Shown: piece by piece, positions 802 through 63,980 of the stretch
Layout: each line of letters opens with the position of its first letter
Numbering within the stretch: the stretch's first letter is position 1
Assembly: GCA_016777125.1 (NCBI GenBank)
Contig: JADHSC010000003.1
Location: 15,164 to 79,163, forward strand
Length of the DNA stretch: 64,000 bases
Direction of reading: 5' to 3'
Source of the DNA: Candidatus Poseidoniaceae archaeon
Lineage (GTDB): Archaea > Thermoplasmatota > Poseidoniia > Poseidoniales > Poseidoniaceae
Notes under the pieces: model-generated
What the model was told of the DNA's origin: nothing
The model's database searches: none
What the model saw: only the letters and a program-made list of their open reading frames with translations
Program-made: the position numbers and the translations under genes

Positions 802-3800
802 TCAGAATTTCGGAGCAGATCCGTATTCAACTACTCGAATGTTTGACTCACACGTTGGACAATTGAATCTGAATGGAGGTTCACTTCCACCAGGAACTGC
901 AAGCCTTGCTTCACATGATGGGCAAGTAATTCGGCGATTGCTATCTATTCGACATTCATTGGGCCCCAATGCATATTCCTTCTCTTCCTCTTCTTCCTCT
1001 TCTTCCTCTTCTCCTTCTTTATCAGAAGTCGGTTTGTTGGAAGGGGATCGGTATTTTATGACCAGTAGAGCAAGAGCGAACAACACATAACCTGCCGCCA
1101 TAATCTTGAATGTTGCATCGCCTCCAATTTCAATTCCAAGAATTGTAATGCCTTCAGGAGGTTGAGCCTTTCCTTCTAAATCTACATCGATAACAGAAGA
1201 TTCTGCATCGACACTGCTTCCATCGACTTGGACCAATGCTCGAACTTTCAACTCTGCTGATGTGGCTTGCGTTGATATTGCATTAAGACGGACAACAAAG
1301 ATTTCCGATGCTCCCGGGCTGAGTGTAAACAAGTCTGTCTTCTGTCCAGCAGTGTTGTTCCATTGAACATCGAAAACACCGTCCCCTACGCCAAGTAGAG
1401 TCAGACGTCCTGTAATGTCGATGTTGGCGAGATTTGTTACCGTGACTGAAGTAGATGAACCGCCCATGTAAGGGACATCAAGGGACGTAGCATCAACTGA
1501 AATTGATACAACTGATGCTGAATCCCAAGAGGCTTCGACATTGTAAGTGGCGACTTCACTGTAGACGTAATCAGAACGTGCAGATGATACAACACGAAGA
1601 CTGAATGCGTTTGTTCCTGCCAAGGCATCTTCTGAAACATCACACGTCCATGCAAGAGGAGAGGATGAGGCGCCCGGTGAAAGGGTGACTGATTCGGCAA
1701 GAGTACATGATAATCCAACAGAACTTATCGAAAATTGATCAGCACTGTTTCCTGTATTTGTAACAGAGACAGTACCATCGATGGTACCGCCTGCTATGGA
1801 AGAATCGTCATTGACAAGAATGGTCAAGTCTGCACCTGCATCCATTGAAAAGAGGGTGATTATTACGAAGTCTGTCGACTCTGAATCGAGAGTAGAAGTA
1901 ACTTGTATGTTGATTGGAAGGCCTGTTTCAGGAGCGCCGGTGGAAGACTCACGTACTCCGAGAACGATTGTTTCTGATTGACCCACACCAAGGACAACCG
2001 AGGTTTGGGATAATGATAGTTCGAAATACGTCGAAGATTCACCGGATTCAAGTGAAAGAAGGAACGTGTCTTGCATTGTACCAATGTTGGTCACTTCAAT
2101 GGTGACATTTGTGATTGCAGATGGGCCAGCAATGGCTTGATTGGTATTCGCATTAAGTTGAGCGAGGCTTCGATCGATAACTTGTAATTCAAGAGAAAGC
2201 AAGGAATCAGGCGCATCGGATACAAGACGTATACTCAACGAGTCAGTACGTGCGTTCATAGCAGCAGAGGCTGTAACGTTCAATTGAGCAACATACAATT
2301 CTCCAGATGCAAGTGTTATCGAAGATACGTCACTTAATTCAGCACTCACGCCTCCAGGCAATCCTGAGATGGTGAAGGTGGTGAGTGAAACATTGGACGT
2401 CCCCACATTTTCAACAACAATATCAATCGATGCTGATTGACCAGGCTGCACGACTATTCGGCCATCGAGGGTTCCTGATAATTCCAATTCTAGAACAGGT
2501 TGAACATCAAATGCCAACGTTGTGTTTAATGTTTGAAGCGAATCGTGAGTTACTGATACGGTTCGTTCGTTGAGTCCAAGTGAACCTGAGGCAGCTATTG
2601 CGCTGAGTGTCCACGTAGCAGACTGCCCGGAAGCGACTGTCACCGAAGATGCAGTATCCAAGGTCAGAGCAACATGAGCTGAGGCATTGCTTACGATTTG
2701 TAGTGAGAATGTTTCGGTTTCGCTCCCTGTATTGAAAACTCGCACTTCAAGAGTTTCCTCTATTCCTGGAGTAAGAAGCATAGCCCCTGATGGACCCTGG
2801 ACGGTGAAGTCAACCTTACGATCGACTTCAAAGGAGAAATCGCGAACGAAAGAAACTGAAGAATCTTCAGAGAGCGTGTTAATTATTCGAACCGAGCAAA
2901 CGTCTCCTATATTGCCGCTGCTTCCTACATCAACTGCAAACGGTATATCTGCGACCTCATCTATTGCAAACGTTGTCTCTGCTGTGAGTAATGCAACTGT
3001 ACACGGTCCGCTTAAGACTGACAATGAGTGCGAGTATGTTGATTCGGTTGTACCTTGATTTGTTATGGAAAGTGTGGTGTTCGTCTGCTCTCCTGGAATG
3101 AATTCATCTGTGCTAGCAAGGAAATCCACTTGCAAACCATAGGTTGCTTGAACATCGATAACGATGAGGGTAGATGTTGAGAGATTACCCATCAAAGATC
3201 CAGCATGCAGTCGCACGCCTGTTGCGCCGGGAAGTGCATCAGATGGTATTGAAATCCGTAGTGTAGAGGACTCTACATTTTGAGCGGATAGATTCTCGAT
3301 TTGATCATCAAGCCATCGTACTTCCCAACCAGGAGGGAATGCTGAATGCTGATTCATTGGCTGAATCGCTCCTGAAGTTTCCCATGGATAATCGTATTCG
3401 GATGAGCCATTGAAAACAACTTCAGCAGCGGTTTGTTGGAGTGTCAGTCGTAATGCAGCATCCATTGTAGTATTATCAGTCAATCCAACTGGGGAATCGC
3501 CTGTTAGAGCAGAAAACAAGACACATGCTGCGAGATAGGAACCCGACGTTGAAGGATGGCTTCCATCACTTTGGTACAGACCATAAAACGTCGAAGTAGG
3601 CGACTGCGGATTGCCACCAGATGCGATGATTGAATCGTGAATGTGTTTGAACGCTAATCCGACAGGTGCAATGTGGATATCAGCAGATGTCTGGGATGAA
3701 ATGTTGTCTCTGTAATCGATGTAGCCTTGTTCAAGTCGATCTTGCATAACGGTATAATTTGAGAACAATATTGGATTGATTGGATCGCCACTTCGATAGC

Positions 3801-4797: not shown

Positions 4798-4861
4798 GGG
4801 ACCACTTCAAGCGAGGTGCCTTTAGCACTTGAGCGAATCGGCTACTGGGCGTTAAAAATCC

Positions 4862-6106
4862 TCAGAAGTTCGTGAGTTTTTCAATTCGAGAGGCGTCAAG
4901 ACGCTCCCATGGGAAATGGCCTTCATCTGTGGCATGGCGGCCGAAGTGACCACCTGCAGCAGTTACTTTGTAAATCGGGCGAAGTAAATCCAAGTCTTTG
5001 GCAATAGCAGCCGGTCTGAAATCGAATGTGCTCTGAACACGATGTGCGAGTTCTGAATCAGATACGGCGCCTGTCCCAAAGGAATCCACCATGAGACTGA
5101 CTGGTTTTGCAACTCCGATAACGTATGCAAGTTGAATCTCAAATCGTGTAGCTAAACCTGCTGCGACGACATGTTTGGCAGCCCATCGCGCTGCATATGC
5201 TGCGCTTCGGTCTACTTTTGAAGGGTCTTTACCACTGAAGGCACCCCCTCCATGGCGCCCCATCCCACCGTACGTATCGACAATGATTTTTCGTCCAGTC
5301 AATCCAGCATCTGCATACGGGCCACCTGGGTCTGCAAAACGACCTGTTCCGTTAACGATGAGAGTATACTCTGAGGAGAGAAGCTCAGAAGGGATTACGT
5401 ATTCTACAACGTGTTTTTTGATTTGTTCCCGTACATGTTGGAGTTCTTGCTCGACAGAACCATCAAATTGGTCTTTCAGATGTTTATCGTGTTGAATTGC
5501 AACAATGACCGTATCGACTCCAATGATTTCACCTTCCTCGTTGTAGGCTATCGAGACTTGTGATTTCCCATCGGGTCGAGCCCATGGCAGGATGTTTTCT
5601 TCACGTACTGTCGTCAGTCTTCGAGATAAACGTTGAGACAGTGCAGCAGAAAGAGGGAAATATCGTCCTTTTAATTCGTCATATTGTTCAGTTTCAGTGC
5701 AAGCAAAACCGAACATGAGACCTTGGTCACCTGCACCTTGGGAATCAAGTGTCTGCCGATCGACACCCTGATTGATGTAAGCAGACTGGGTGGTAACATA
5801 GACCAAAACATCACATAAATCCGGATTCGTAGCATCCATTCCAATGACATGCGAATCATAACCGATGTTGGCTGCTGCTTGACGGGCAATAGCGTCGTAA
5901 TTAGGAGCGGGAGCGTCCAGAGACACTTCCCCTGCAAGGATGATTACGCTCTTGTCGTCCATCCCTTTGACGCAGGTTTCAACTGCAACGCGTGCATTTG
6001 AATCAAGGGCAAGACAAGCATCGACAATAGCATCCGATATAGCATCGCACAACTTATCAGGGTGACCACTGGTTACAGACTCCGATGTAAAGATGTCATG
6101 TTGCAT
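4862..6106 (-). CDS. metK: S-adenosylmethionine synthetase, bacterial/eukaryal MetK type.
   Basis: N-terminal signature SGHPDKLCDAISDAIVDACL (the GHPDK motif). Overall MetK three-domain length. Confidence 0.85.
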   Translation of the reverse strand: MQHDIFTSESVTSGHPDKLCDAISDAIVDACLALDSNARVAVETCVKGMDDKSVIILAGEVSLDAPAPNYDAIARQAAANIGYDSHVIGMDATNPDLCDVLVYVTTQSAYINQGVDRQTLDSQGAGDQGLMFGFACTETEQYDELKGRYFPLSAALSQRLSRRLTTVREENILPWARPDGKSQVSIAYNEEGEIIGVDTVIVAIQHDKHLKDQFDGSVEQELQHVREQIKKHVVEYVIPSELLSSEYTLIVNGTGRFADPGGPYADAGLTGRKIIVDTYGGMGRHGGGAFSGKDPSKVDRSAAYAARWAAKHVVAAGLATRFEIQLAYVIGVAKPVSLMVDSFGTGAVSDSELAHRVQSTFDFRPAAIAKDLDLLRPIYKVTAAGGHFGRHATDEGHFPWERLDASRIEKLTNF

Positions 6107-6204
6107 GGTTTTCCGCTTCTGTACTCATTATCAAAGGTTTGCCTACTGAATCGAGCATGGATTTACAGCGATTCCTATTTGTACGGCACCATCTAGGATT
6201 TCAC

Positions 6205-7605: not shown

Positions 7606-7606
7606 G

Positions 7607-8362: not shown

Positions 8363-8401
8363 GTCAAGAACCACTAAGACCAGTAATGCTCTCGGCGAGT
8401 C

Positions 8402-20799: not shown

Positions 20800-21630
20800 A
20801 TGCATCGAATTGCTTCAATTCCAGCCCGTATCAACATCATCGGTGAGCATACGGATTATGCAGGAGGCCTCTCCTTTGCATTTGCAGCACCTCAACGCCT
20901 GACCCTCAAAGCAACAGCAATTTCTGATGGATTTGAAGGTGAGAGTACGATTGTTTCTCTGTGGAAGGAAGCGAAAGGATGGCCAGCTCAACTGACTGTA
21001 ACAAGCGAAATTCCAATAGGAGCAGGGATGTCATCTTCAGCTGCACTATGTTTAGCAATTGTTCTGTGCATTAACAAGGATATTGAAGCATTCCAGGCAT
21101 GTCAAGAAGCACAACGTATCGAACATGTTGTTCTCGGAACAGAGTGCGGTTTACTCGATCAAATCGCAATGATGTTTTCCAAACCCAATCATGCAACATT
21201 AATCGATTTTTCAACGATTACGACAACACAACACCCCCTACCAGAATCCCATGTGTTCAAACTTATTGATTCAGGAATTCACAGAACATTGGGGGAAATG
21301 GACTATCGAACATCTGTCGATGAACAAACAAAGAACATCCATGTCCAAGAAGAAAATCAACGTGTAAAAGAAGCGATTAGAGCCTCACCAGAACAATTAG
21401 GATTGCTGCTCAACGCCACTCATCAATCATTACGAACCATCGGCGTTAGTATAGAAGAGATCGATCAACAAGTGATGGCCCTTCAAAATACACCAGGAGT
21501 CTTGGGTGCTCGCATGATGGGTGGTGGATTTGGAGGGATGATTCTTGTTCTTGTTGAACATGAGGGAATCTTACCTGAAACTACTGTTGTCCAACCCTCA
21601 GAGGCTGGTTTTGTTCAGGAATTCCTCTAA
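20800..21630 (+). CDS. GHMP-family sugar kinase, galactokinase-like.
   Basis: PARINIIGEHTDYAGG (galactokinase-like motif I), PIGAGMSSSAAL (motif II) and MGGGFGG (motif III). Confidence 0.6.
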   Translation: MHRIASIPARINIIGEHTDYAGGLSFAFAAPQRLTLKATAISDGFEGESTIVSLWKEAKGWPAQLTVTSEIPIGAGMSSSAALCLAIVLCINKDIEAFQACQEAQRIEHVVLGTECGLLDQIAMMFSKPNHATLIDFSTITTTQHPLPESHVFKLIDSGIHRTLGEMDYRTSVDEQTKNIHVQEENQRVKEAIRASPEQLGLLLNATHQSLRTIGVSIEEIDQQVMALQNTPGVLGARMMGGGFGGMILVLVEHEGILPETTVVQPSEAGFVQEFL

Positions 21631-26198: not shown

Positions 26199-26206
26199 TC
26201 AACCAC

Positions 26207-40832: not shown

Positions 40833-43532
40833 TTCGTTTATTTTCCGCTCTGCTCGAGCCAGTAAGCCGCCTGATTGATCATCAGGCTCAGGTTGCTGAG
40901 GAGGCTTTCGAACCTGTAACAGCATCCACCCAACAAGAGCAACGAGTGGGACAATAATCACAGCTGCAATCAATGTTGAGCCTCCACTTGATGGATCATC
41001 AGAATCTGCTGAAGGAGTCTCTGGCTCAACTAGAACCGTGTACTGAAGGCGCAATGAAACATCTGCAAAGGCTGGATCTCTTGCAATGATATCAAACTGT
41101 AGAATCGAACCTTCGATCTGTTCTCCAGTGAAAAGTTGAGTACACCAAGAAGTGATTATTGAAGAATCACAATTCATTGTTCCACTTTGGAGTACACCGT
41201 CAAGATTGACGATGATATCCATTTGTGAATCAGGATCTGTATCGCTCCAAAGCCATTGCAACAGAAGTGTGTTTTCAGAGGTCTTTGTGATCGATCCATT
41301 CGATAGAACAGGACGATCCGGTTCAGCACTTATCGTCAAGTTAATTCTCTTTGCGAAGACAACCTCGCCATCAGTGACATTCAGCCACCATCCATTGTCA
41401 ATTCCATTTGCATCAATCAATGCAGAAATGAGCAACTCTTGACCTGATATCGCCATTTGCGACTTCGTTGAACCATCTGATTCTAATTCCCATACCAACG
41501 CATCTCCATCGGCATCAACAGCAAAATCAAGAAGGCTTACGAGAAGTGTCTCCTCCTCACCAAGAGCAATATTCCATGACGATTCAGTAACATCAAATGC
41601 ATCGTTCATTGCATTTACTCTGAACGGTACATCAAGTGAAAGAGGTGTATTGAATCCATCAGAGGCAGTTAGCGTGAACACTTCTGCGCCGTTAGCATTG
41701 GACAAAGGAGTAAATCGAATCGTGTCATTTGAAGGTTCAACAAACCATGAAAGCAACTCTCCTTCTCCTTGAGTCAATCCGTTAATTTCCATTGTCAAAG
41801 GAGCCCCTTCAGGGTCAGTGATGTATTGAGACGCATCAAACCAAACAGCAGGACCATCTTCGTCGACCACTTGTTGTACCACCGTAGAGAGTTGGATAAG
41901 CGGATCATTAATTGGAAGGATACTGCCGTTTAGAGTGACGTTCAACAGATCGAGTATAGCCCCACCTGCTTTCAGTTCCAACTCGACTTTCGTAGTCCCC
42001 TCCCATTCTTCATCAAGTGGATGTGAAAGTGTGAACCCCAATAAATCTGCATCGATTATGATGTTGAAATGGGATTCATTATCTAGAAGTGTGGCGTTGA
42101 TGATTTCAATTGCTTGACCATCAGGGTCGATGGCAATCTCAGAAGAATCAAGATGAACATATCCCCGCTGTGGAACAAGTAGTTCAGGGTAGGGATCAAT
42201 CAATCCGATTGGATCGTTTGTTCTGTTAAAGTCGAAGGTAATGTATCCTGAACCGCCTTCTACAAAGACCTTCAATTTGATTTGATGAGCTCCCGGAGAG
42301 ACACCACTCATTGGCACAACACACCGAGCCTCATCATTGATGATGACTCCAGAAAACACAGTAGAATTATCAAGAACACACTTTGTTGAAACGGTCCAAT
42401 TTGAAGGGATATCATCGTATTGATCACCGTTTCGCATAGACCATGATGCTAAGAAAACTGCTTCATCCATTGGACCAAGTAGGGTCCCATTCAAACTGAT
42501 AGGTGTTGTAAGAGGAATGAGTTGGGCTTCATCAAAATCTTCATCCACATACCCATTCGAATCGACAACTGTATCGACCTCATTCGGACGGTTAAACGCC
42601 TCACGGAAGGATGAATGGTCCCCGCGTAATGTTAAGTCGAGATACGGGAGAACATGCTCCATTGCATGATCCATTTGTTCCTCTTGAGTGAGTGAAGCAT
42701 CTCCATCATTCAAATTCTCGAAGAAGGAAGATGAATCTTGATACTGGTAATGATTTGCTCCAAGTGAGTGGAGTATTTGCCATGCAAACCCATCCACATT
42801 TTCCAATACTGGCAGAACGTGTTCTGTTGCAGGTGCTACTTCATCGGCACTTCCCGTGATGAACAAGCCAATGTTTGGAGCAGGTGCTTGTATCGTAAGT
42901 GGTTCGTTCACTTCTTCAACTTCAAGAGCAAGTCCTACAATAGCTCTCGGCGGTTGGACGGTTTGATTTGTTGCAAGTGTGAGCCAATTGATGTATCCAT
43001 TCGTTGCAATAACAGCACCTACGCCGTGTCCAATGAGGCCCCAATGAGCTTCGTCTACGGAACCAAACATTCCAAGCACTGCCTCATTTGACTGGTTCGC
43101 ATTGTTCATCCATGCTTGAATTTCCTCTAAATCGGAGACAATATCATTGACTTCCAGATCGGTTTGCCATGAAGGTATGTACACCATCGTACCCGTTTGT
43201 GCAATTCGTGAACAGAGAAGCATGTAGTTGTCTGGAGTTTCATTTTCATCAACGATGAGAACCATCCATGGGAATGGACCGTTCCCTGCTACTTCACTGT
43301 CTTCTCCAGAAACCATTGCTGGATAGACAAGGCGATGATCTTGTCCTGGAGCTCCTTGTTGGTTCACTGAAAAATCAATCCACCCGACTGGGAAGTCGGG
43401 TCCCGTGTGAGGCGATTGGAAATTAGAATCTTCTTCTGGAAAGGCTTGCACTCCCGAAAAGGTTGCTAAGACTAGCAACCCACACATCACCAAGGAGCGT
43501 GCGCTCATAGGGTTGGCTGGCTCTTCGGACAT
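40827..43532 (-). CDS. Large cell-surface protein (901 aa). Signal peptide, alpha/beta-hydrolase-like N-terminal domain (nucleophile Ser apparently replaced by Gly), beta-rich domains, and a C-terminal TM anchor.
   Basis: MCGLLVLATFSGVQAFP signal. GLIGHGVGAVIA where GHSxG is expected, followed by Asp (LFITGSADEV) and His (LHSLGANHY) positions. C-terminal TM LIAAVIIVPLVALVGWMLL followed by RKPP. Confidence 0.5.
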   Translation of the reverse strand: MSEEPANPMSARSLVMCGLLVLATFSGVQAFPEEDSNFQSPHTGPDFPVGWIDFSVNQQGAPGQDHRLVYPAMVSGEDSEVAGNGPFPWMVLIVDENETPDNYMLLCSRIAQTGTMVYIPSWQTDLEVNDIVSDLEEIQAWMNNANQSNEAVLGMFGSVDEAHWGLIGHGVGAVIATNGYINWLTLATNQTVQPPRAIVGLALEVEEVNEPLTIQAPAPNIGLFITGSADEVAPATEHVLPVLENVDGFAWQILHSLGANHYQYQDSSSFFENLNDGDASLTQEEQMDHAMEHVLPYLDLTLRGDHSSFREAFNRPNEVDTVVDSNGYVDEDFDEAQLIPLTTPISLNGTLLGPMDEAVFLASWSMRNGDQYDDIPSNWTVSTKCVLDNSTVFSGVIINDEARCVVPMSGVSPGAHQIKLKVFVEGGSGYITFDFNRTNDPIGLIDPYPELLVPQRGYVHLDSSEIAIDPDGQAIEIINATLLDNESHFNIIIDADLLGFTLSHPLDEEWEGTTKVELELKAGGAILDLLNVTLNGSILPINDPLIQLSTVVQQVVDEDGPAVWFDASQYITDPEGAPLTMEINGLTQGEGELLSWFVEPSNDTIRFTPLSNANGAEVFTLTASDGFNTPLSLDVPFRVNAMNDAFDVTESSWNIALGEEETLLVSLLDFAVDADGDALVWELESDGSTKSQMAISGQELLISALIDANGIDNGWWLNVTDGEVVFAKRINLTISAEPDRPVLSNGSITKTSENTLLLQWLWSDTDPDSQMDIIVNLDGVLQSGTMNCDSSIITSWCTQLFTGEQIEGSILQFDIIARDPAFADVSLRLQYTVLVEPETPSADSDDPSSGGSTLIAAVIIVPLVALVGWMLLQVRKPPQQPEPDDQSGGLLARAERKINES

Positions 43533-51335: not shown

Positions 51336-51347
51336 ACATCAACCCTT

Positions 51348-53723: not shown

Positions 53724-54254
53724 TCAGACCTTGTTGTACTCTAGGTCGCTGTAGGTCTTGATGACCGATCCTTCACCAGGTCCTGGTTGGTATGTGATTC
53801 GGATTGTTCCATCCGTAATCGCAGTACCGTCAGGTGCATGGGTTCGAACCATAATTTGATCACCAATACCGAAGGTTGATTCCTTGTAGGTTCCTTCGTC
53901 TTCTACCTTATCGAAGAAGGTAACGAATGCATCACTGTTCGATGGACTAAATCCATACACATCACTTGTGTTAGCAAGGGATGTAGCATAGGATGTTCGT
54001 GTTCCAGTTGAATCAGTGTACAGAACTGTCACGATGACAGACTGAGTTGAAAGTTCAGCTTCAGTCTGATCAACACTGATTGCCCAGTATCCATCTGCAG
54101 CACCGAGGTTCTCATTCACTTTATCGAAGGTAACTCGAGGAGTTCCTAACTTACCAGTCTCTGCAAGAGAAGATGCCCAAACATAGATGACACCGGAGAG
54201 AACAACTGTGATTGCGACCATCAAGATGGTTGCGATAACAGGGCTCACTGCCAT
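53724..54254 (-). other. In-frame archaeal type-IV-pilin-like module (Pilin_N/class III signal-peptide-like helix plus a ~150-aa globular part). It is either a C-terminal domain of the giant protein or a separate small gene that starts at the internal ATG.
   Basis: MAVSPVIATILMVAITVVLSGVIYVWAS closely resembles the conserved N-terminal hydrophobic helix of archaeal type IV pilins (AVSPVIGVILMVAITVILA...). Confidence 0.45.
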
Positions 54255-57200
54255 TTCGTCATCAACGATTCTGGTGTCTTCTTCTACGTCTTCTTCATCT
54301 CTGCGGCTTGACATAGCAAGGGCAGTAACGAAGAATCCTGCGAGAGCAACGACAACGAGGCTTGGAGCGAACGATGGAACTGATCCAAGTCCACTACCGA
54401 GCGAAACAACACTTGGTATTCGTCCAGTGTTGTTTGCTGCAAGGAAAGTGCTTGCAGGTTGGTTTGCATGGTTGCATACAGGAGCTGTTTCTGTAGAGTA
54501 CATCACGTTGTTACACCAATCGCTGTCTTCGAGGAGAGGACGGCGTTCGGATGTCTTGGTTGCATCGCTACCATATTGACCTGGCTTGGACCAATCGTCA
54601 CCTTGTTGTCCACCAGAGTTAGCTCTGTGGGATTTAGGGTCGTCGGTCTGGAAGCGGTCAGAAGGAGCCTTGCTCAAGTCACAATCATCATCCAAACATG
54701 TTAGAACATCCATCTCGACATAGATTTGTCCAGAGGAGTTAACGATGTAGACGTATTCCTGAATGACCATAGTATCTCCGTATGCAGGTACTGGATAGTA
54801 CTTGACATTCTCGGACTCACCATGACCACCATCTGTGTGGAATGTTACAGCCAACATGTGGTCGTATGTGAACGGTCCAACATCTCCACCAGCACCAATG
54901 GTTACCTCAACAGGTACGTATGTACCTGAGAGAACGTTATTGATTCCGAGGAAGTCAAAGCCGATTGCATCATCGAAGTAGTAGTCTCCAACCAATTCAC
55001 GAACGTTTTCAACACGAACACCAATTTCCTGAGTAGCAACACCTTGGGTGTAGCTGGCAATTGACATTACTGCTGGATCGTAGTTAGGTACGTAACTTGG
55101 TGCAGTAGCAGTATCCTTCAGTACAAGACGGATTTGACAGAAGTCAGAACCGCTCGGTCCGATTTGGTGGATACCGTTATCGTTCAAGTAATCAATTTCC
55201 CAAGCGTTAGCGTTGGTCGTTGCATCTGGAACCAGTTCGAAGACGAGGTTGTCGTCCTGGATGGTTGCAGTGAAGTAGTTCTGGTATGTACATTGGTCAG
55301 TTGGTTCAACAGTCCATGCCAAGTCAGCAGCGTTATGATCAACGTCATACTTGACTGCAGACAAGTCATAGGTCAAGTTCTGTACGCTTGTGTCATCTTC
55401 CATGAGGGAGATGGACCAAGGAGCAACTGGTGTAGATCCGTTAGCGGATGTTACAACAGCACCGGTAGTAACGTCCCAGTCGAGAACAACTGGAGCATCG
55501 TTAACTGGGCTGACTGAGAAGTCAACAACTACATTGTCTGCAGCTGTGTTCTCTGCACCGTCATCACTCAGAGTGAGTGTAACAGGACATGTACCACCGA
55601 GTTCGTTACCAGTGTTTTCAGTCATGGTTAGTTCGTTAGCGACAACATCGACACTGAAAGCAATACAGTCAGTAGGTACGGATGCACCCCATGTGTAGAC
55701 TTGACGGGTCGGGTCTTGCTCGTTGTCCATATCACGGACGTATGACTTGCTTGCATTGGAAATATCTCCAAGGAACTTGGAAACACTGCCGAATCCTTCA
55801 GGAACAATGTTCGTGTAAGATCCGTCATCTACGAAGACTGGCATACAATCGATACGCTCTGTGTTACAGATGACTGGCTTGTCGTTAATGTTGTTAACAG
55901 TCAACGTCATGTTCTTGGTATCAGTCAATCCGTGGCTGTCTGTTACAACAAACTCGAATTCGATTGTACCGAACTGGTCATCGAGAGGTGTGATCGATAC
56001 TGTGTGTCCGTTCTTGTTCCAGTCAACCAATACATTGCTGTGAGCAACAGTTGTTCCTTCAGTAGCGGTCCAAGTCAATGTAGCTTCATCGTCTTGTACG
56101 TCATCTGCAAGGTTTGTGAGAGACATGGTGTAAACACCGCTGTCTTCATCAACTGCATCATCTGCAAGTGTGGCTTGGATTTCAGGACATGCACGCTTGA
56201 TATCGACGGTCAATTGTTGGTTCGTTGCCATAGAGACAGCGTCAACAGTAGCCCAGTCGTAAGCACAATCTGCTTGTGTCTTAATCATGACATCGTAATC
56301 CTTAGCAGCGCCAGCAGTGGTTGAACCCTTGTAGGTTCGGTAAACCAATACTTCATCACTGATGCTTCCAGTCTCAAGATCATCGTGAGTTGTCTCGATG
56401 GAGATGTACTCAGTTAGTGTTTGAGCGCCAGTAGTTACAGTCTGGGATGGGTGAACATTTTGGATGTTCGCCGTTCCATCTTGTAGGATAGCAACGATGT
56501 TTACAGCATCAGGAGTACCGCCAAGGCGGCTGAACGGAATTGCGATTTCGAAGAAACCAGCAGTTGTTGTTCCCAAGTCTGCATCAACAGCATCTGTCGA
56601 CATTGAACTTGCTCCCCAGCCAAGGAATCCATTAGAGTATAGATCCATGTTGGTATCACTTGTTGCCCAGAACAGGTAATCTGCTTGGACAGGCAATGTG
56701 TGAGCTGCGTTCAAGTTGTAGCCAGTGTTTGAACCACCAGCAACGACGTCCAGGTAAATCAACAGGTCGTTGGTTGCAAGATCTTCACCGGTCATACCGA
56801 TGTAGAGTGCATCACCTTCGCTGTATGTTACAAGGAGGTCGTTTGTTCCGTCTCCAGAAACCATACCAGGCATAGCATCGTCAGATGGGTTCAGTGGTGT
56901 TCCACCAATCCAATCAGAGTCGTCACCGTCTACAGCCATGATATCTGGCTGGAAAGCAGGTGATACGTATGCTGCACGTGTTCCATCAGTTGAGAGAAGA
57001 GACATACCAACAGCAGATGCAGTACCTTGTAGGTGAGTTGCATCGAGGCTGAACAGGTTTGCTTCATCGATGGTTGCGGAAGCAACGATACTAATTGCGT
57101 TTGAATCGAGTGTGTTACCAATACTGGTTACGTATGCATTCGATCCTGCATTAATTTGCGTTGTTGAAGCAGACCATGTGAGGTTCTCGACAGATCCTAC

Positions 57201-60200
57201 AGATTCAACTGCGTGAAGGGCTGTTGTTGCAGTAGAGGTACCGCCGTCCCAACGGAACTCAGTATTCTCTGCGTAAACACCAACGTCTCCAGCAGCATCA
57301 AGTGGGTATATCCACGAGTAGTCACCGTCAACCATGTACAATCCAGTACCTGTTGCACCACCATCGACTGAAGCGTCGATAGCAGTTACAGTTGCATCCT
57401 CAGCATAGACACCAGCAGTTGATCCTGCAACGGATGCAGCACCTGTTAGTGTTAGCGTAGCGTCTTCGATAGAGACACCGTATGCATATCCGCTGATGTC
57501 TGTTCCAGAGAGGGTAATGTCATCTCCCGAGTTGAGAGAAGACATACCGATACTGCCAGAGACACCTGTTCCAACAATGGTTGAGTCGACATCATTGATG
57601 TCGCAGCCATCGGTGACGACTGCATTATCGCCCATGTTGATGGTGTTCAATTGGCTCTGAATAGTTACAGAGTTACAGTCGACGAAATCAAGACCAATTG
57701 CGTTAGGAGCAACACGACCAGGACTGAGTCCGATTGTGTTGTTCTCAACAACTGGTCCAGAGTATCCACCGGTACTGGTACCGTAGTAGACAGCGATGTT
57801 TGCTCCACCGTCACCCCATGTATCAGTAACCTTCAGCGTGTATGATCCAGCAACGTTGTACGATGTTAAACGGTTGTAGGCTGTGTTGGAACTGAATGAT
57901 CCTGCAGCCCATGTATCGGTTGTTCCATCTGGCTTTGTAATTTCAAGGCCGATTTCTGAACCCCAGCTATCAGATTCTAGGTCGACATACGCAGTGGAAC
58001 CAGAAGGTACCGTAAATGTGCATGAAGCAGTAGTTCTGTATGCATTGGATGCAATTGTACACAATGATGTGGAAGGTGCAGGAGGTGCTTCTGCCGAATC
58101 AATTCGGATACCACCGTCTGCGTCCAATAGAGTGTTGTTGGAAACATCACCATATCCACCGTTGATGGTGATACCAGGCTTGCTAGCATCACTTACACCG
58201 GTGATAGAGTTGCCGTCCAATAGATAACCATTTGTGTTAATCAATTGAACTGCAGTTTCTGGTCCATCGAATGTGTTGTCAGTAACTGTCAAGCGCTTGG
58301 TCGATTGATCGTATGCTCGAACACCGTATTTACCGGTGGAACTGCTGAAGGTGTTATCCTTGACAACGGCATCATCGGCATATGAGTTCGAGTAGAACCA
58401 AACATCGGCTATTTCTCCACCATCAAGGAAGGTGTTTCCTTCAATAGTAGTGTTATCTGCACCAAACTGGCTAGCACTATGAGTGTAGGAGTATCCAGAT
58501 CGTTGGAAGGAAATTCCAGCGCCACAGTCTGACAATGTACTATTAATGACGTATGAGTTATCTGAACCATAGAAGTTGATACACACGTCTGTTGATGAGA
58601 TAGCATTGTTCAGTGGTGTGTAACCCTTGTAATGCGTCATTGAAACGTTATCAATTCGCAGCCAATCAGAGACACAGTCATAGTTGTTCCAAGTGGAACA
58701 GTATCCCATACCGCTGGTAATCGACGCCACTGGGTTCAATGTTGAATTCTTAATCGAGATATCCATTGCTTGGTATAGGTAACCGATTTCAACACCGGTT
58801 TGTTGACCAGATGTTGGGTTAACTGCAAGACCATACACTTCAGATTCGTGAAGGTACAATTCAGGTGCATCAGTTCCACTTTGAGCATACCATCGTTGAG
58901 TATCACTGAACGTGTATGAACCTGTAACCAAAACCTTGGTGTTGTTCCAGTTGTGTTCTTCATTGTCATCGAAGTACATGAATGGAACGTCAACCATAAT
59001 TGTCTTACCAGACATGTCTTCAGGAGTTGCTCCGTAGTAACCATACTCCATGTAGGATCCACCATCACCGTCAGTCAAGGATCGAGAAGAACCAGTTCCG
59101 AGGTATCGTGAACCGCTGCATCCAGCAACCATAACGTATGATGAACTGCTGTATGTGTAACAGACACGTGCTTCGATACGATCGTTCAAGTCAATAGTTC
59201 CAGTGAGGCCACTCGTATCTGAAAGACTGAGTGTTTCGAAAGCATATCTGAAATCACCCTTACTGGATGTGTATTCAATCATAGCAACAGTAGCTGCCTG
59301 ATATCCCGCCAGGTTGTCGGTGGTCGTACCTGAAGAGTCAACACGAACAGTTCTGAATTGTATTCCAGAAGCATCTCCATTGGAATCGGTTGTACCTGTT
59401 CCAGTGATCTTCTTGTCAGCATTCATCAGAACAACGTTTGTTCCTTGAACACCAGACCCATCTGCTTCAATTGTCATTTCCAATTCACGCATTCGTTCGA
59501 AATCACCAGTTCCAGTAACTGATACCTTAGAAGTATCAACTGTACCTTCAATGAAGTCAACCTTGCTTGAACCTGTTACAACAACGTCGTGTGTCGTACT
59601 CGCAAAGGCCGAGTCTGTTATCGTGAACTCTTGACTTCCTGCCGTTTCGAGACCAACATCGTTTCCTGCTAGAGTAATACCGTCAAATACAACATTCTTA
59701 CTTGTAAGTGGGCCGTACTTGTATGCAGCTCCAGCACTGTTGGTGATGGTACCTGAAAGATCTCCACCGAAGTTCTTGACGTAGTAAATACCAGCAGTGT
59801 TCTGAGCATCAAAGTCCATGTTTGTCAGGTCGATTGAACCGGAACCTGAGGAAGATACGAGCATTCCGTAATCTCCACCGTTAACTTCAATGTCGTCCAT
59901 TGCAGCGGATACAGCGCCAGTTACTTCAACACCAGAATCGGTTGGTGAAGTAATGTCGATAGATTCGAATATTCCAGCGGCAAAGTTACCACCAATTTCG
60001 ATTCCATTATCTGCTCCAGTGATGACTCCATTCTTGAAAGAAGCAGTACCGCTGTCTCTGAGATAGTCTCCGAGATCGCTTGGATCATTACCAGCACGAG
60101 CGACAATGTCAAGTCGGTCTTGGTAATTGTCTGCACGGTTGTGGAGAACATCAACATACATAGTAACCTTAGAGATTGAACTATCGGAAATATCTACGAC

Positions 60201-63200
60201 TGGGAAAGACATACGAGCGCCTTGTCCTGGATTCATGTAATATGAATATGCATAATCGAGACAGATGTTGTATGATCCTCCAACGTATCCTTCAACAGGC
60301 TTGTATACCCCTTGTCCACCATGGTAAGAGGTGTAGTAGTAGCCCCAGTAATGGTATGGGTAATATCCGCTGTTTGGTGTTGTGTCAGCATCAATTTCAG
60401 ACCATCGGAATCCGAATTGGTCTGGGTAGTAGTAGTAACCAGGATAGGATGGGAAGGTCTGAGGACCTTGAGGCCAATAGCGCCATAGGTAGTACATGTA
60501 ACCGTCAAAGTTACTTGTAGCGGATGGCCCATAGCTGTAACCGTATTGGTTACAATGCCATGATGCAACTCCACCTTCACCACCAGCGTATGTGTCAGCA
60601 CCGTTTCCAGACTTAGGATCGTTTGCACCCCATGGGTAGTATCCCATCTTGTCTGGTGTGGTAATGTTCTCAGAAACTTCTCCGCTTCCATCATCGTAGG
60701 TAACTTCGATGTTCCAGCGGTCAGTAATCATGTAGTACTTGCTTGTAGCATAGTTGTAGGTTGGGTGAGCATTTCCACCACCATAGATGGAGTTAGCACC
60801 AACTTGCAGATAATCTGAAGTTCCAAGGAAGGAGGAGAGGTCTACTGCATATGTTGTCCATCCAGTTGATTGTCCTGACAATGAAGTAGAACGGTAAATG
60901 GTTGGAAGGCTCATTCCACCGTAGACATCGACACCAACAGTGTTGTCAGTTGATGTGAATCCGTCGATTTGCGGAGCACCGTTGTAGGCTTGTATACCAA
61001 CAGCAGCGTTAGAGACTGCGAGGTTGGTGTATGAACCACTTGCTTGTTCAACCCAAAGGGCTGTGCCAGTGTTCGCTACGTTGATGATGCTGGAGGAAGC
61101 TATGTCAGCTGTTCCACCATCAACCTTGACGGTTGCCATCTCAGTAGAACTTGCAGAGGAACCGTAAACAGTACCTGAGTTCTTCATGATTAGCGTAGCA
61201 CCATCTCCAACGTACAGAGCAGACCCTGTAGTTGCATCTTGAGCAACATCACGGACAATACCGCCATCAATTTCGAGTGTTCCATCTTGGATATCGATTG
61301 TCAGAGGGTATGTTGAAGAAACCGCCTTCAATACTCCAGTGGCTACTGAAGATTTTCCTACAAGCAACTTACCACCATTCGATAGTGTTAGTACAGGAGT
61401 ACTTGTTGCAGTCGACTTGACTGCTAGAACAGCACCCATGAGTTTGACGACACATCCATTGAGGTTGAGATCTTCAGTCAATGTCATTGGTGTTCCATCA
61501 AATTCGTAGATGACTCCTCCAGCAGCGGTTGTACCGTTTGTAGGTAGACCCGCTCCGGTGTCAGCATCAGTCCATGCTGCCAACCAAGAACAGTCCATGT
61601 TGGTTCCATTGAAATCAACAGGGGATGGCTCAAGAAGAAGAGCATATGAACTGCCAATGGTAAATCCACTGGTCAAATCGCTTGCATACCAGGTGTCACT
61701 CGAGAGAGTCTCGTTCTGTCCAGCAGGTCCGAATGCACGGAGGTTGTGATCGCTGTATGTGTTTCCAGCACTGTCTCCAGTGATGACCCACACAGATGCT
61801 TCACCGTTTGCATCAGTAATGTGAGATCCGACTTCGAAGAGTTCGGCTCCCGCTCCTGATACAACACTAGCGCTGACAACGTGTCCACTCTTGTTTACTT
61901 CTTCGATAGTTGAGTTAACAGCTTCGAGTCGGTATGCACGCAGAGTTGCAGTACCACCGTAGTAAATCAATGCAGAGGATGATGTGTAAACATCACAATC
62001 TGATGTAGCACCGTTCGAGTCAGCACAATCATCAGTGTTCTGTGAAACATCGATAAGACGTACTTCAGCGTTTGAACTTGCATAAGCAAGGTAAACACCG
62101 CTTCCAGCATTGGAACTGGTAATATCAACTTCACCAATAGTCATCTTCGAGTTACGAGCGTACAGAGCGTGGTCTGTGCTTGATGTGTGGGAAAGAGTTC
62201 CCCCATCGACGACAAAGTTGTTTGGTGCAGCGCTGCTTGAACAGCTGCTGTATACTCTGTCGGAATCGATGGTTGTTACATCAATCTTCCATCCACATCC
62301 TGCTACACCAAATCGACCAGAGTCGAGATTTGCAACAGACATAACATCAGTCGAGATAGCGTTCCCTGAGATGTCAATGTGTCCAGCGGTTATATCATTA
62401 AACATCGAAGGTTGAATTCGAGTCATAGATATGTCGCCAGAATCGATGTTGTGGAAGATAGCGAAATCTCCAGAAGGTCCGTTTGCTGTGCTTGAAGAGC
62501 CACCAGGAGTGATGGATAGCGTAGCAGTTCCAATGTCGACGTCTGTCATGTTGATAGAACCAAGAGCATTGATCGAGACACTTGAGTATCCAGGAGCATC
62601 AAGGTTGAAGATGTTCACTTCGCTGGATGTACCAAATGCTGAATCCAATGCAACTCCAGTTTGTGCAGATCCACTTGTTGTGAAAGAAGCACTAACGTTT
62701 GAGATTGTTACATGTTGCAAATCTGTATCGATGAGGTTCTTGTATGCATTCTCAATTGTTACGTTCTCAACATGGAGCATTCCACCAGTAGAACCTGGAT
62801 AGTTGACGATAGCGCCGCCCCATGATTCGCCGTCAGAGTTACAATTCGACATCGTTCCTTCCATGAGCATAGCGTTTGCGCTGCTTGGCAGGTTAATACA
62901 AGCCTTGTCAGCCCCACTAATTGCGAAGTTCATCATCGTAATTCCAGTTCCTTGTCCACTGCCGTGACTGATTGCAGTCTCGACGTTGGTGAATGTAACT
63001 TGACTTAGTGTGAAGTTACCGACGTTAGCGTTGGAGTAACATGGTCGTGTACCACCGTTGCTGTCAACACAGTATGCGTTGTAGTCTTGGTGTCGTGAAC
63101 CAGCAGTGATTGCAGCAGTACTGGTGTTGTTGAAGTCAACGTAACTGAATACGTGTCGGTCATCAGTACCAGCGGTTGTAGTACAATCGTCTGTGAAAGA

Positions 63201-63980
63201 GAGACCCTTCCATTCTGCACCTGCAGCACCCTCGAAGAGGATATGATCGGTGGAGTTTCCGATAGCCTTGACTGAATCGCAAGCACCATCTATGGAAATT
63301 CCCTTACCTTGTTCGACTTGTATGACTGTTCCTGGCTGGATTGTTAGATCTCCACCAGATACAGAGAGATAGTCGCTGCTAGGGCTGATTCGGTACGGTG
63401 AACCTTCATTGTCCCAGATACATTCTACATTGTTTCCTGAACAGTCGAGGTCGTTGTCGACATCTGTACCCTTGCCTTCGAATGGCATTGTACGGACATA
63501 GACACCACAATCGTATGCTGTGTTATCATAGCAGTAGTAGCTGCTGTAATAGCCCCACCATGGTGCAATTGTACCAGGTCGAGCTGCAGAGTTACTAGAG
63601 TATGGCAAATCAGGCATGCTTGTACCCCATGTAGTAATACCACGTTCAAGGGATTGAGAGCCAGTGTCAATCATGTAGAGGTAACCGTTACGACCAATTT
63701 GAAGTCGGTCGTCAGTGTCGTCACCATCGAACGATTTCTGGAAGTAATCGAAAGTAAATCCAGAAGGAAGGTCGATGTTCGCGTTACATCCAGTCTTGTA
63801 TTGGTTCCAGTAGTAACTGTAAGAACAGTAGTAACCAGTTGGCGTACCACCTGATGAACCAGAGATAACCTGTGCAGCGTTAGAAACAGGCTTGATACCT
63901 GTTGAGAACGCTTCGTATCCATGGTCATTTCCATCAGTTGAAATTCTGTAGTTGGATGAATGCGGGTTGTTACCAGCCAT
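53724..63980 (-). CDS. Giant cell-surface protein (>3418 aa; the 5' end very likely extends beyond the window). Contains beta-helix and adhesin-like domains, a Tyr/Trp-rich low-complexity block, and a C-terminal TM anchor.
   Basis: Uninterrupted ORF to the window edge, with no signal peptide at the in-window Met. Repeated NxTxxG/DNTF right-handed beta-helix-like repeats. Hydrophobic segment PSLVVVALAGFFVTALAM followed by SSRR. Confidence 0.6.
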   Translation of the reverse strand: MAGNNPHSSNYRISTDGNDHGYEAFSTGIKPVSNAAQVISGSSGGTPTGYYCSYSYYWNQYKTGCNANIDLPSGFTFDYFQKSFDGDDTDDRLQIGRNGYLYMIDTGSQSLERGITTWGTSMPDLPYSSNSAARPGTIAPWWGYYSSYYCYDNTAYDCGVYVRTMPFEGKGTDVDNDLDCSGNNVECIWDNEGSPYRISPSSDYLSVSGGDLTIQPGTVIQVEQGKGISIDGACDSVKAIGNSTDHILFEGAAGAEWKGLSFTDDCTTTAGTDDRHVFSYVDFNNTSTAAITAGSRHQDYNAYCVDSNGGTRPCYSNANVGNFTLSQVTFTNVETAISHGSGQGTGITMMNFAISGADKACINLPSSANAMLMEGTMSNCNSDGESWGGAIVNYPGSTGGMLHVENVTIENAYKNLIDTDLQHVTISNVSASFTTSGSAQTGVALDSAFGTSSEVNIFNLDAPGYSSVSINALGSINMTDVDIGTATLSITPGGSSSTANGPSGDFAIFHNIDSGDISMTRIQPSMFNDITAGHIDISGNAISTDVMSVANLDSGRFGVAGCGWKIDVTTIDSDRVYSSCSSSAAPNNFVVDGGTLSHTSSTDHALYARNSKMTIGEVDITSSNAGSGVYLAYASSNAEVRLIDVSQNTDDCADSNGATSDCDVYTSSSALIYYGGTATLRAYRLEAVNSTIEEVNKSGHVVSASVVSGAGAELFEVGSHITDANGEASVWVITGDSAGNTYSDHNLRAFGPAGQNETLSSDTWYASDLTSGFTIGSSYALLLEPSPVDFNGTNMDCSWLAAWTDADTGAGLPTNGTTAAGGVIYEFDGTPMTLTEDLNLNGCVVKLMGAVLAVKSTATSTPVLTLSNGGKLLVGKSSVATGVLKAVSSTYPLTIDIQDGTLEIDGGIVRDVAQDATTGSALYVGDGATLIMKNSGTVYGSSASSTEMATVKVDGGTADIASSSIINVANTGTALWVEQASGSYTNLAVSNAAVGIQAYNGAPQIDGFTSTDNTVGVDVYGGMSLPTIYRSTSLSGQSTGWTTYAVDLSSFLGTSDYLQVGANSIYGGGNAHPTYNYATSKYYMITDRWNIEVTYDDGSGEVSENITTPDKMGYYPWGANDPKSGNGADTYAGGEGGVASWHCNQYGYSYGPSATSNFDGYMYYLWRYWPQGPQTFPSYPGYYYYPDQFGFRWSEIDADTTPNSGYYPYHYWGYYYTSYHGGQGVYKPVEGYVGGSYNICLDYAYSYYMNPGQGARMSFPVVDISDSSISKVTMYVDVLHNRADNYQDRLDIVARAGNDPSDLGDYLRDSGTASFKNGVITGADNGIEIGGNFAAGIFESIDITSPTDSGVEVTGAVSAAMDDIEVNGGDYGMLVSSSGSGSIDLTNMDFDAQNTAGIYYVKNFGGDLSGTITNSAGAAYKYGPLTSKNVVFDGITLAGNDVGLETAGSQEFTITDSAFASTTHDVVVTGSSKVDFIEGTVDTSKVSVTGTGDFERMRELEMTIEADGSGVQGTNVVLMNADKKITGTGTTDSNGDASGIQFRTVRVDSSGTTTDNLAGYQAATVAMIEYTSSKGDFRYAFETLSLSDTSGLTGTIDLNDRIEARVCYTYSSSSYVMVAGCSGSRYLGTGSSRSLTDGDGGSYMEYGYYGATPEDMSGKTIMVDVPFMYFDDNEEHNWNNTKVLVTGSYTFSDTQRWYAQSGTDAPELYLHESEVYGLAVNPTSGQQTGVEIGYLYQAMDISIKNSTLNPVASITSGMGYCSTWNNYDCVSDWLRIDNVSMTHYKGYTPLNNAISSTDVCINFYGSDNSYVINSTLSDCGAGISFQRSGYSYTHSASQFGADNTTIEGNTFLDGGEIADVWFYSNSYADDAVVKDNTFSSSTGKYGVRAYDQSTKRLTVTDNTFDGPETAVQLINTNGYLLDGNSITGVSDASKPGITINGGYGDVSNNTLLDADGGIRIDSAEAPPAPSTSLCTIASNAYRTTASCTFTVPSGSTAYVDLESDSWGSEIGLEITKPDGTTDTWAAGSFSSNTAYNRLTSYNVAGSYTLKVTDTWGDGGANIAVYYGTSTGGYSGPVVENNTIGLSPGRVAPNAIGLDFVDCNSVTIQSQLNTINMGDNAVVTDGCDINDVDSTIVGTGVSGSIGMSSLNSGDDITLSGTDISGYAYGVSIEDATLTLTGAASVAGSTAGVYAEDATVTAIDASVDGGATGTGLYMVDGDYSWIYPLDAAGDVGVYAENTEFRWDGGTSTATTALHAVESVGSVENLTWSASTTQINAGSNAYVTSIGNTLDSNAISIVASATIDEANLFSLDATHLQGTASAVGMSLLSTDGTRAAYVSPAFQPDIMAVDGDDSDWIGGTPLNPSDDAMPGMVSGDGTNDLLVTYSEGDALYIGMTGEDLATNDLLIYLDVVAGGSNTGYNLNAAHTLPVQADYLFWATSDTNMDLYSNGFLGWGASSMSTDAVDADLGTTTAGFFEIAIPFSRLGGTPDAVNIVAILQDGTANIQNVHPSQTVTTGAQTLTEYISIETTHDDLETGSISDEVLVYRTYKGSTTAGAAKDYDVMIKTQADCAYDWATVDAVSMATNQQLTVDIKRACPEIQATLADDAVDEDSGVYTMSLTNLADDVQDDEATLTWTATEGTTVAHSNVLVDWNKNGHTVSITPLDDQFGTIEFEFVVTDSHGLTDTKNMTLTVNNINDKPVICNTERIDCMPVFVDDGSYTNIVPEGFGSVSKFLGDISNASKSYVRDMDNEQDPTRQVYTWGASVPTDCIAFSVDVVANELTMTENTGNELGGTCPVTLTLSDDGAENTAADNVVVDFSVSPVNDAPVVLDWDVTTGAVVTSANGSTPVAPWSISLMEDDTSVQNLTYDLSAVKYDVDHNAADLAWTVEPTDQCTYQNYFTATIQDDNLVFELVPDATTNANAWEIDYLNDNGIHQIGPSGSDFCQIRLVLKDTATAPSYVPNYDPAVMSIASYTQGVATQEIGVRVENVRELVGDYYFDDAIGFDFLGINNVLSGTYVPVEVTIGAGGDVGPFTYDHMLAVTFHTDGGHGESENVKYYPVPAYGDTMVIQEYVYIVNSSGQIYVEMDVLTCLDDDCDLSKAPSDRFQTDDPKSHRANSGGQQGDDWSKPGQYGSDATKTSERRPLLEDSDWCNNVMYSTETAPVCNHANQPASTFLAANNTGRIPSVVSLGSGLGSVPSFAPSLVVVALAGFFVTALAMSSRRDEEDVEEDTRIVDDEMAVSPVIATILMVAITVVLSGVIYVWASSLAETGKLGTPRVTFDKVNENLGAADGYWAISVDQTEAELSTQSVIVTVLYTDSTGTRTSYATSLANTSDVYGFSPSNSDAFVTFFDKVEDEGTYKESTFGIGDQIMVRTHAPDGTAITDGTIRITYQPGPGEGSVIKTYSDLEYNKV

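Follow-up and report, generated by a model that had tools for sequence, protein, structure and literature searches.

Archaea of the order Poseidoniales are uncultured and among the most abundant archaea of the surface ocean. Proteins with adhesion domains have already been recognized in Marine Group II (MGII), where attachment to particles and phytoplankton was proposed for them and where they are enriched in particle-attached populations (Orsi et al. 2015, PMC4511931, citing Iverson et al. 2012; Rinke et al. 2019, PMC6461757); giant surface proteins are therefore expected at this level. The passages of these two papers that we searched deal with adhesion domains, thrombospondin, flotillin and archaella, and mention neither a transmembrane (TM) helix followed by a tail, nor cytoplasmic minidomains, nor a pilin fusion. 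Here we analyze a stretch of 64,000 nt from a Candidatus Poseidoniaceae archaeon (contig JADHSC010000003.1, positions 15,164 to 79,163; hereafter the window), which belongs to the same lineage and encodes five very large proteins with adhesion-type domains: A (802..4797), B (23601..26198), C (26207..35371), D (40827..43532) and E (53724..63980). We consider it probable that these are five large, mostly unrelated adhesion-domain surface proteins, of which A to C carry tails with minidomains of their own and E ends in a pilin module. New relative to the described proteins are the three-layered tail with a family-specific minidomain, a portable Trp-rich module at the end of C (the W-domain) and a conserved adhesin-TM-pilin fusion.

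Three other described systems invite comparison. The haloarchaeal S-layer glycoprotein and other PGF-CTERM substrates are large, N-glycosylated proteins that carry a Sec signal and are anchored by a hydrophobic region near the C-terminus, a layout close to the one predicted for A to D. In PGF-CTERM proteins only a few basic residues follow the helix, and ArtA processes the proteins and attaches them to a lipid. None of A to E has a PGF motif before its helices or a match to an NCBIfam sorting signal, and the tails of A to D extend 29-111 aa past the helix, so we discarded the possibility that A to E are archaeosortase substrates; in E an SFAP-TM-RR arrangement is conserved but lies internally. 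The adhesins SiiE, LapA and the RTX proteins also present Ig-like, cadherin-like or beta-helix arrays of several thousand residues on the surface, but their export runs through type I secretion and relies on C-terminal signals, and they lack a TM anchor (PMC6272769). A to D do not belong with them: they match no RTX or type I secretion family in Pfam or NCBIfam, and each has a signal-type segment at its N-terminus as well as a TM helix. Eukaryotic cadherins and integrin beta are laid out alike, as an ectodomain of repeats, one TM helix and a short tail, which there recruits adaptors. D and E even carry cadherin-like domains; the tails, however, have no homology to the eukaryotic ones, we know of no catenin- or talin-type partners in archaea, and any coupling to the cell interior is here something that we infer. 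The likeness to eukaryotic type-I adhesion receptors is best taken as a design analogy, not as membership.

A to E sum to 28,722 nt, or 44.9% of the window, and all lie on the minus strand; an earlier note on this DNA, made from the sequence alone, had listed the same five coordinates and put their share at about 45%. An open run of 3,054 codons, as in C, has a probability of about 1e-64 by chance, and the large open reading frames (ORFs) are therefore genes. The remaining ORFs are ordinary archaeal housekeeping genes, encoding among others the RFC small subunit, the PolD small subunit, a Pelota/eRF1-like protein, a GCD14-type methyltransferase, SAM synthetase, an aminoacyl-tRNA synthetase and formate-tetrahydrofolate ligase, and the GC content is 42-48% throughout. 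The five large proteins are not one paralogous family: all-against-all blastp gives a single match, between B 48-593 and C 2208-2787 (24% identity over 584 aa, E 3e-24). In what follows, L-numbers denote loci of relatives and P-numbers homologous proteins.

We read TM helices and signal segments from Kyte-Doolittle hydropathy, flanking charges and terminal sequences. A, B, C and D each begin with a hydrophobic segment of n-h-c layout and AxA-like end, which is conserved in the orthologues of A and C; in A it is MSKTHSRAVVLVLLMLAASASPLAFTAKA followed by DS (ending in ...AFTAKA), and in D it ends in ...LVLATFSGVQA before FP. Near the C-terminus, each of the four has a single strong TM helix (Kyte-Doolittle 2.2-3.3), and basic residues follow directly: KYR in A (helix at 1057..1113, aa 1229-1247, hydropathy 2.16), RRGNSK in B (23937..23993, aa 736-754, hydropathy 3.17), RSGR in C (26498..26599, aa 2925-2958, including a conserved Gly-rich GFFAAGGxLYYVGA segment before the helix) and QVRK in D (40917-40973). 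Weaker internal hydrophobic windows in A (977-995) and B (556-574) contain Asp and reach a hydropathy of only ~1.8; we read them as buried strands and not as TM helices. As a signal-type segment coincides with one TM helix that has basic residues on its tail side (the positive-inside rule), a tail-inside topology, and with it a type-I layout with a cytoplasmic tail, is predicted for A to D.

The earlier note had given all five proteins one shared architecture, with a Sec-type signal peptide, a single C-terminal TM helix and an acidic tail. As a layout this describes A to D, which have the n-h-c segment and the single helix; E departs from it, since its N-terminus lies outside the window and it has two hydrophobic helices, and the sequences are unrelated except for the stalks of B and C. 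Acidic tails are confined to A, B and C. The tail of A has 84 aa (19 D/E, 12 K/R; a Glu10 run and then a Cys4 motif), that of B 111 aa (32 D/E, 7 K/R; an acidic/aromatic run and a conserved end) and that of C 96 aa (30 D/E, 6 K/R; an acidic run, a Pro-rich repeat and the W-domain). In D the tail is only 29 aa long and charge-neutral (5 D/E, 5 K/R), and in E the acidic stretch is a loop of 21 aa before the pilin helix. The proteome as a whole is acidic, with net charges of -1 to -12 per 100 aa, which makes acidity alone a weak signal.

The beta-rich ectodomains, for which the same note had proposed a check for Ig-like, cadherin-like or beta-helix folds, match such domains in Pfam and NCBIfam. 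A (1331 aa) matches DUF4886 and several Ig-like families (FixG_C, NPCBM_assoc, HYDIN-type), with choice-of-anchor-T below threshold; D (901 aa) matches Big_9, cadherin-like and tandem-95 repeats; and E combines a NosD beta-helix with Big_9/cadherin-like domains. PDB sequence searches with A and D gave nothing useful. The Ig-like stalk of B (865 aa) gives weak Big_1 signals only. The ectodomains are rich in Ser/Thr (14-24%), and N-X-S/T sequons occur in A to D at 1.5-1.8 per 100 aa, above the composition-based expectation (most cytoplasmic neighbors have ~0-0.9), a density that fits heavily N-glycosylated exported domains.

The N-terminal two thirds of C (3054 aa) hold a DNRLRE/CBM96 array (29066..35227, aa 49-2102) with fn3-like spacers. 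The match to PF24517 falls into five stretches (E 1.8e-57, 194 bits against a cut-off of 26) and that to NF033679 into seven (E 1.3e-84, 282 bits against a cut-off of 34), and a self-search places the modules at approximately aa 49-224, 379-468, 700-884, 1034-1209, ~1491-1544, 1696-1870 and 2015-2102. C also matches fn3 and Big_1, and NCBI names a member of the 90% cluster of one C orthologue 'DNRLRE domain-containing protein'. Behind the array follows the membrane-proximal Ig-like stalk that is homologous to B by blastp (27011..28750, aa 2208-2787). The founding member of CBM96 is a module specific for alginate that belongs to a bacterial alginate lyase (PMC9971899); unlike that enzyme, C has no catalytic module, and it carries seven copies as a membrane-anchored archaeal protein. 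Together with the domains of the other proteins, the array supports a predicted role in surface adhesion or glycan capture.

C and B are followed by a glycosidase gene. Between the TAG of C and the ATG of B lie 8 nt, GTGGTTGA (26199..26206, minus strand), which are Shine-Dalgarno-like, and the third gene of this operon encodes a cytoplasmic fusion of a GH1 glycosidase with an NTP-transferase (21598..23574, minus strand; ORF 21598-23643). Translation of the fusion probably begins at Met24 (nt 23574), which is preceded by GGTGGTG and lies 26 nt past the stop of B. The order C-B-GH1 is kept in relatives of 64-91% identity (L001, L003 and L008) and partially in L002 and L004; with the 8-nt gap, this agrees with the co-transcription of C and B that had been thought probable. 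The closest of the related GH1 fusions, with 91% identity, is encoded in a marine metagenome-assembled genome (MAG) that bears the name 'Methanobacteriota archaeon', and several Poseidoniales/Poseidoniaceae MAGs have fusions of 73-75% identity; these matches, along with archaeal neighbors such as RFC, the PolD small subunit and Pelota, place the window in Poseidoniales. The GH1 fusion could feed NDP-sugars to glycosylation rather than serve catabolism. In other Poseidoniales (L005-L007, ~4000-9800) a different TM-anchored protein of ~1,900 aa stands upstream of GH1, in the position of C and B, and its tail is basic, Pro-rich and ends in poly-Pro. A GHMP (galactokinase-like) kinase gene at 20800-21630 is convergent to the GH1 fusion. 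At the other end of the operon, the 96-nt divergent gap between C and the RFC small-subunit gene holds a perfect, GC-rich hairpin (35420-35438, CGCCCCCC-ATA-GGGGGGCG).

This conserved gene order bears on the alternative that survives best, namely that the proteins, B and C especially, are structural: an S-layer-like or glycocalyx lattice whose tails would fix it to the membrane or cytoskeleton. C and B are syntenic core genes across Poseidoniales and not strain-variable islands, and a lattice would also account for the high sequon density and for membrane-proximal Ig-like stalks with conserved Gly-rich juxtamembrane motifs. Seven DNRLRE/CBM96-type modules are, on the other hand, typical of glycan-binding proteins (PMC9971899), no S-layer family was matched in Pfam or NCBIfam, and a PGF-CTERM-type signal is missing. 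We regard a purely structural role as rather unlikely; envelope lattice and adhesion are in any case compatible, and the two roles can coexist.

Identities among orthologues were compared region by region for A, B and C; for D no orthologues were retrieved. They are 51-55% in the terminal zinc ribbon of A (ectodomain 37-40%, linker 21-28%), 75-77% in the terminal domain of B, its last 53 aa (ectodomain 67%, linker 41%), and 45-55% in the W-domain of C, its last 44 aa (ectodomain 33-46%, linker 23-50%). The terminal domains are thus better conserved than the ectodomains, which indicates selection on these three tails, and the linker, with 21-50% identity, is the least conserved layer of each tail. 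In sequence, each of these long tails has three layers: a basic collar, a spacer of low complexity that evolves fast, and a conserved minidomain that is specific to the family. The conserved element of each tail is this small terminal domain, which is presumably functional, and functional cytoplasmic tails are accordingly a supported prediction for the three families.

The terminal domains differ from one family to the next. In A the tail ends in a Cys4 zinc ribbon (805..969, minus strand; NEC...CPSC...CPTC...IRVVE) that belongs to PF23548 (E 6.4e-7, 29.3 bits against a cut-off of 27) and whose cysteines (CPSC...CPTC) are invariant in 16/16 sequences. Zinc ribbons are usually cytoplasmic. Orthologues of A, which were sought in marine metagenomes with a query that excluded the tail, fall at 87-94% and at 37-40% identity. 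B ends in a helix and a Trp-rich segment (23604..23762, minus strand; LR..LA.KA.Q.GVMQA...GWYVD.S.E.Q.W.VG.DGSW.R), which is kept in family members of as little as 43% identity and is specific to B orthologues: each of the 59 matches was a B-type fragment. C ends in a Trp-rich four-strand beta domain. The ends of B and C match no Pfam family at E<=10, and they are not homologous to each other, as a hidden Markov model (HMM) of the W-domain finds C alone in the six-frame translated window.

Acidic and aromatic residues characterize the spacers of the B and C families, to which C adds a Pro-rich part; in the A family the spacer is poly-Glu or Lys-rich. B has the juxtamembrane run EEEWDEYDDEYEYEDEEDDEED (23853..23918, minus strand) and C the run DDDDWDDDYDEDDED (26441..26485, minus strand), an equivalent of which is present in all members of the C family that we read; both families keep the composition of D/E plus Y/W/F in this place and not the sequence. 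The Glu10 run of A (982..1011, minus strand, aa 1263-1272), in the predicted cytoplasmic linker, varies among close orthologues and is replaced in distant ones by the Lys-rich KPEKKPKKKEEK. In the Pro-rich part of C the (GPSGPAPGT)2 repeat (26366..26422, minus strand) ranges from 2 to ~8 copies across orthologues. The (GPSGPAPGT)n repeat behaves as a spacer of variable length in the orthologues compared, which include L001, P0201 and P0204.

The earlier note had combined surface adhesion or substrate capture with acidic tails that dock, in all five proteins, onto one common cytoplasmic partner. The domain types of the ectodomains uphold the former; the latter we find improbable. The composition of the post-TM runs in the B and C families, the Glu10 run of A and the acidic stretch that follows TM1 throughout the E family would all suit a shared partner. 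The acidic stretch is, however, the layer of the tail that is least conserved, distant orthologues of A have lysines in its place, the short tail of D is neutral, the protein that occupies the C/B position in L005-L007 has a basic, Pro-rich tail, and the acidic stretch of E aligns with pilin leaders, all in a proteome that is acidic as a whole. What is conserved are three unrelated domains at the ends of the three long tails, and a common partner for a shared acidic tail is for this reason not supported.

Family-specific terminal domains remain the preferred reading of the tails. The W-domain of C (26210..26341, minus strand, aa 3011-3054) has ~42 aa and the pattern W..(E/D)HRVDDDGTEW...WYYR..G..W..W. 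In our alignment A1, W73, W81 and W91 are invariant and R..DG is nearly so. A phmmer search with the C tail against 1.84 billion representatives returned 38 proteins, mostly C orthologues or their fragments. The others place the same domain in different company. P0196 (962 aa) has a polytopic N-terminal membrane region, a W-domain at 614-655 that is 80% identical to that of C over 30 aa, followed by a Ser/Thr kinase domain (Pkinase, E 5e-13), and its cluster has 8 members on independent contigs. P0199 (631 aa), which lacks a signal peptide, is a TPR protein (TPR_12, E 1.5e-19) with the W-domain at its end, and P0198 and P0202 are coiled-coil proteins of 118 aa with the W-domain in the same place. 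At the level of sequence, the W-domain is a mobile module, found also in TPR, coiled-coil and membrane Ser/Thr kinase proteins. Two groups of candidates were removed from this list. P0185 and P0207, which with P0200, P0201, P0204 and P0205 might have passed for shorter paralogues, are fragments of C orthologues limited by contig ends or frameshifts, and we read the latter four, which share the stalk of C, likewise as fragments. P0203, in which a Ras-like domain is joined to a W-domain, comes from a single contig of 954 nt, has a junction nearly identical to a C-type tail and is probably a chimera. On L101 (1-12206, a TARA scaffold) and L083, the W-domain kinase is clustered with two further Ser/Thr kinases, of which one has FHA, as well as with a VWA protein and a Pro/Glu-rich protein of 1,082 aa; this cluster is possibly a signalling island.

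AlphaFold2 (AF2) models the W-domain (residues 58-96) as a meander of four beta strands with pLDDT 90-94, behind an acidic, Pro-rich linker that is disordered (pLDDT ~50). The closest geometric matches are single blades of beta-propellers, with a root-mean-square deviation of ~1.3 A over 30-34 residues. With its three- or four-stranded meander, spaced Trp residues and Pro-rich neighborhood, the domain bears what we take to be a likeness to WW and DUF2510 domains, for which no family match was found; an identification of the tail ends of B and C as DUF2510 or WW was dropped, as Pfam at E<=10, the PDB profile search and Foldseek gave it no support. Since the W-domain occurs beside a kinase and in a protein without a signal, its cytoplasmic location is supported, and protein-protein docking or self-association would be the most economical reading of its role. 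Going further, the W-domain might be a hitherto undescribed docking module. By homotypic contacts or a shared ligand it would connect the glycan-binding C with scaffolds of the TPR or coiled-coil type and with the membrane Ser/Thr kinase, all of which have a W-domain, such that algal attachment would be sensed or anchored on the inside. We think this specific scheme doubtful; if true, it would be an archaeal counterpart of the coupling of adhesion receptors.

The distribution of the W-domain also bears on the possibility that the terminal domains serve the biogenesis or sorting of very large exported proteins, by retaining the C-terminus, recruiting a chaperone or insertase, or in quality control, and have no part in signalling or anchoring. 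This would agree with each family having its own small domain at the extreme C-terminus behind a disordered spacer, and with no partner being encoded next to the genes of A to E. Soluble proteins of the TPR and coiled-coil type, however, have the W-domain too, as does a kinase, and none of these needs help with export; D, moreover, manages with a tail of 29 aa. A role in biogenesis alone has, in our judgement, little probability.

E differs from the other four in what follows its membrane helix. In known archaeal pilins the class III signal stands right at the start of the precursor, preceded only by a leader of ~10-30 residues. E (53724..64000, minus strand) comprises more than 3418 aa. Its reading frame has no stop codon between 63980 and the end of the window at 64000, and an orthologue on a 1.95-Mb contig (L081) aligns from the first residue of E and continues upstream with plain ectodomain without a signal peptide; the ATG at 63980 is therefore internal and the N-terminus of E lies outside the window. 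Behind the ectodomain come, all on the minus strand, TM1 (54315..54371, aa 3204-3222), with a nearly invariant SFAP before and RR after it; an acidic loop of 21 aa (54252..54314) that is predicted to be cytoplasmic; a Pilin_N helix with the class III signal (54123..54251); and a C-terminal beta-sandwich (53727..54122), a pilin/FlaF-like globular domain predicted by AF2 that would be extracellular. Loop, helix and sandwich together make up a complete archaeal type IV pilin precursor module. The helix matches PF07790 (E 2.3e-8, 30.1-35.2 bits against a cut-off of 25.2) and TIGR02537 (30.6 bits against a cut-off of 20), and a profile of the E family matches the solved pilins 8fj5 (E 8.7e-12), Natrinema PilA2 8gi2 and 9myg. 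With the Pilin_N (DUF1628) pilins 8fj5 and 8gi2, E shares the helix AVSPVI(G/A)(V/T)ILMVAITV(I/V)L behind an acidic leader. The precursors of the pilins in solved filaments have acidic leaders, for example SDEERAVSPVIG, and as the acidic loop of E aligns there, the loop is equivalent to a pilin leader. A free-standing pilin with the same helix is encoded elsewhere in Poseidoniales (L033).

The C-terminal model has a mean pLDDT of 79, with a helical hairpin followed by the beta-sandwich (model residues 94-225, pLDDT ~80-92). In Foldseek the sandwich weakly resembles the soluble domain of S. acidocaldarius FlaF (E 7.5e-3 to 2e-2, target TM-score 0.46-0.54).

The arrangement is a stable property of the family. 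A search with the tail of E returned 237 homologues, many of which cover the whole query of 402 aa, and both helices are present in all of the 57 that we aligned, down to ~38% identity. The alignment has 24 invariant columns, in the region of the Pilin_N helix, and the SFAP and RR around TM1 are nearly invariant; the SFAP-TM1-RR arrangement, seen in E and in the homologues P0001-P0107, resembles an internal sortase-type tripartite signal. In an orthologue of 37-41% identity, on the 1.95-Mb contig, the order of E and the downstream HAD hydrolase gene is kept as well. E is thus an adhesin-TM-pilin fusion. Where known pilins carry the class III signal at their start, that of E has at least 3,240 residues and a TM helix ahead of it: it stands at residue 3244 or later, behind the giant ectodomain and TM1, and this placement is kept in 57/57 sequences. 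We also considered a free-standing internal start for the pilin, but the homologues have no conserved Met between TM1 and the helix, which makes separate translation unlikely. Tentatively, E may be a polyprotein of adhesin and pilin, cut by prepilin peptidase at its internal class III signal, although we consider such cleavage less likely than not. In the surveys of type IV pili that we searched (PMC4858521; a 2026 bioRxiv survey) we found no description of such an internal signal. Were E processed in this way, the rules for class III signal peptides would be extended, and adhesin and pilus biogenesis would be linked one-to-one. That the E fusion or the giant ORFs are artefacts of assembly or gene calling is hardly credible: E is cut by the end of the window and long-read assemblies do show orthologues broken by frameshifts, but the ORFs of the window are uninterrupted, the fusion junction recurs in 57 homologues from independent assemblies down to ~38% identity, and full-length C orthologues have 3047-3087 aa.

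Taken together, a model can be proposed in which the ectodomains form a glycosylated coat that is adhesive or binds polysaccharides, with C probably directed at acidic algal glycans. The spacers would hold the terminal minidomains away from the membrane, and each minidomain would have a cytoplasmic partner of its own or would self-associate, which for C could mean contact of its W-domain with W-domain scaffolds or kinases. In E, prepilin peptidase would cut the embedded class III signal and so release a giant type-I protein with an acidic tail of ~20 aa and a free pilin. Several points weigh against this reading. Signal cleavage and orientation of A to D are predicted from hydropathy and the positive-inside rule, and partner binding by the tails is something that we infer. 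Binding of alginate by C would be an extrapolation, as the ligand specificity of CBM96 is known for the bacterial founding member only (PMC9971899). The conservation of C and B across the order, with 33-46% identity over 3,000 aa in C, fits a core envelope component equally well. For the W-domain, Foldseek against the PDB gave nothing significant (best E 0.44), a PDB profile search gave no match at E<=1, and the Pro-rich linker is not docked onto the domain in the AF2 model; the contigs with the W-domain kinase and TPR proteins are short, and a comparison of neighboring genes did not place them in Poseidoniales. For E, genes of pilus assembly (prepilin peptidase, ATPase/platform) are not found in the window. 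What the results give is a set of sequence handles on the attachment of Poseidoniales to particles and algae and on the make-up of their envelope.

The window and the loci of its relatives have several further features. D is separated by 1 nt from the upstream ORF at 43534-44640. Two more proteins, encoded at 19768-20787 (plus strand) and 36682-37611 (minus strand), are probably exported, with 2.1 and 2.3 sequons per 100 aa; one belongs to the endonuclease/exonuclease/phosphatase family and has an N-terminal hydrophobic segment, and the other has 309 aa and no Pfam match. An amino-acid permease (9510-11171, minus strand) ends in a pair of EF-hands (PF13499, E 2.5e-9), an unusual appendage for the sensing of calcium. 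A small membrane protein is followed by an SPFH/flotillin gene (45224-47296, plus strand); in passages of PMC6461757 flotillin is linked to MGII aggregation. At 11276-13629 (minus strand) a LigB-type extradiol dioxygenase is fused to a RidA/L-PSP domain and is followed by a second LigB-type gene. In L103 and L104 the same LigB-type genes directly adjoin the C orthologue, and the gene order has therefore been rearranged between lineages.

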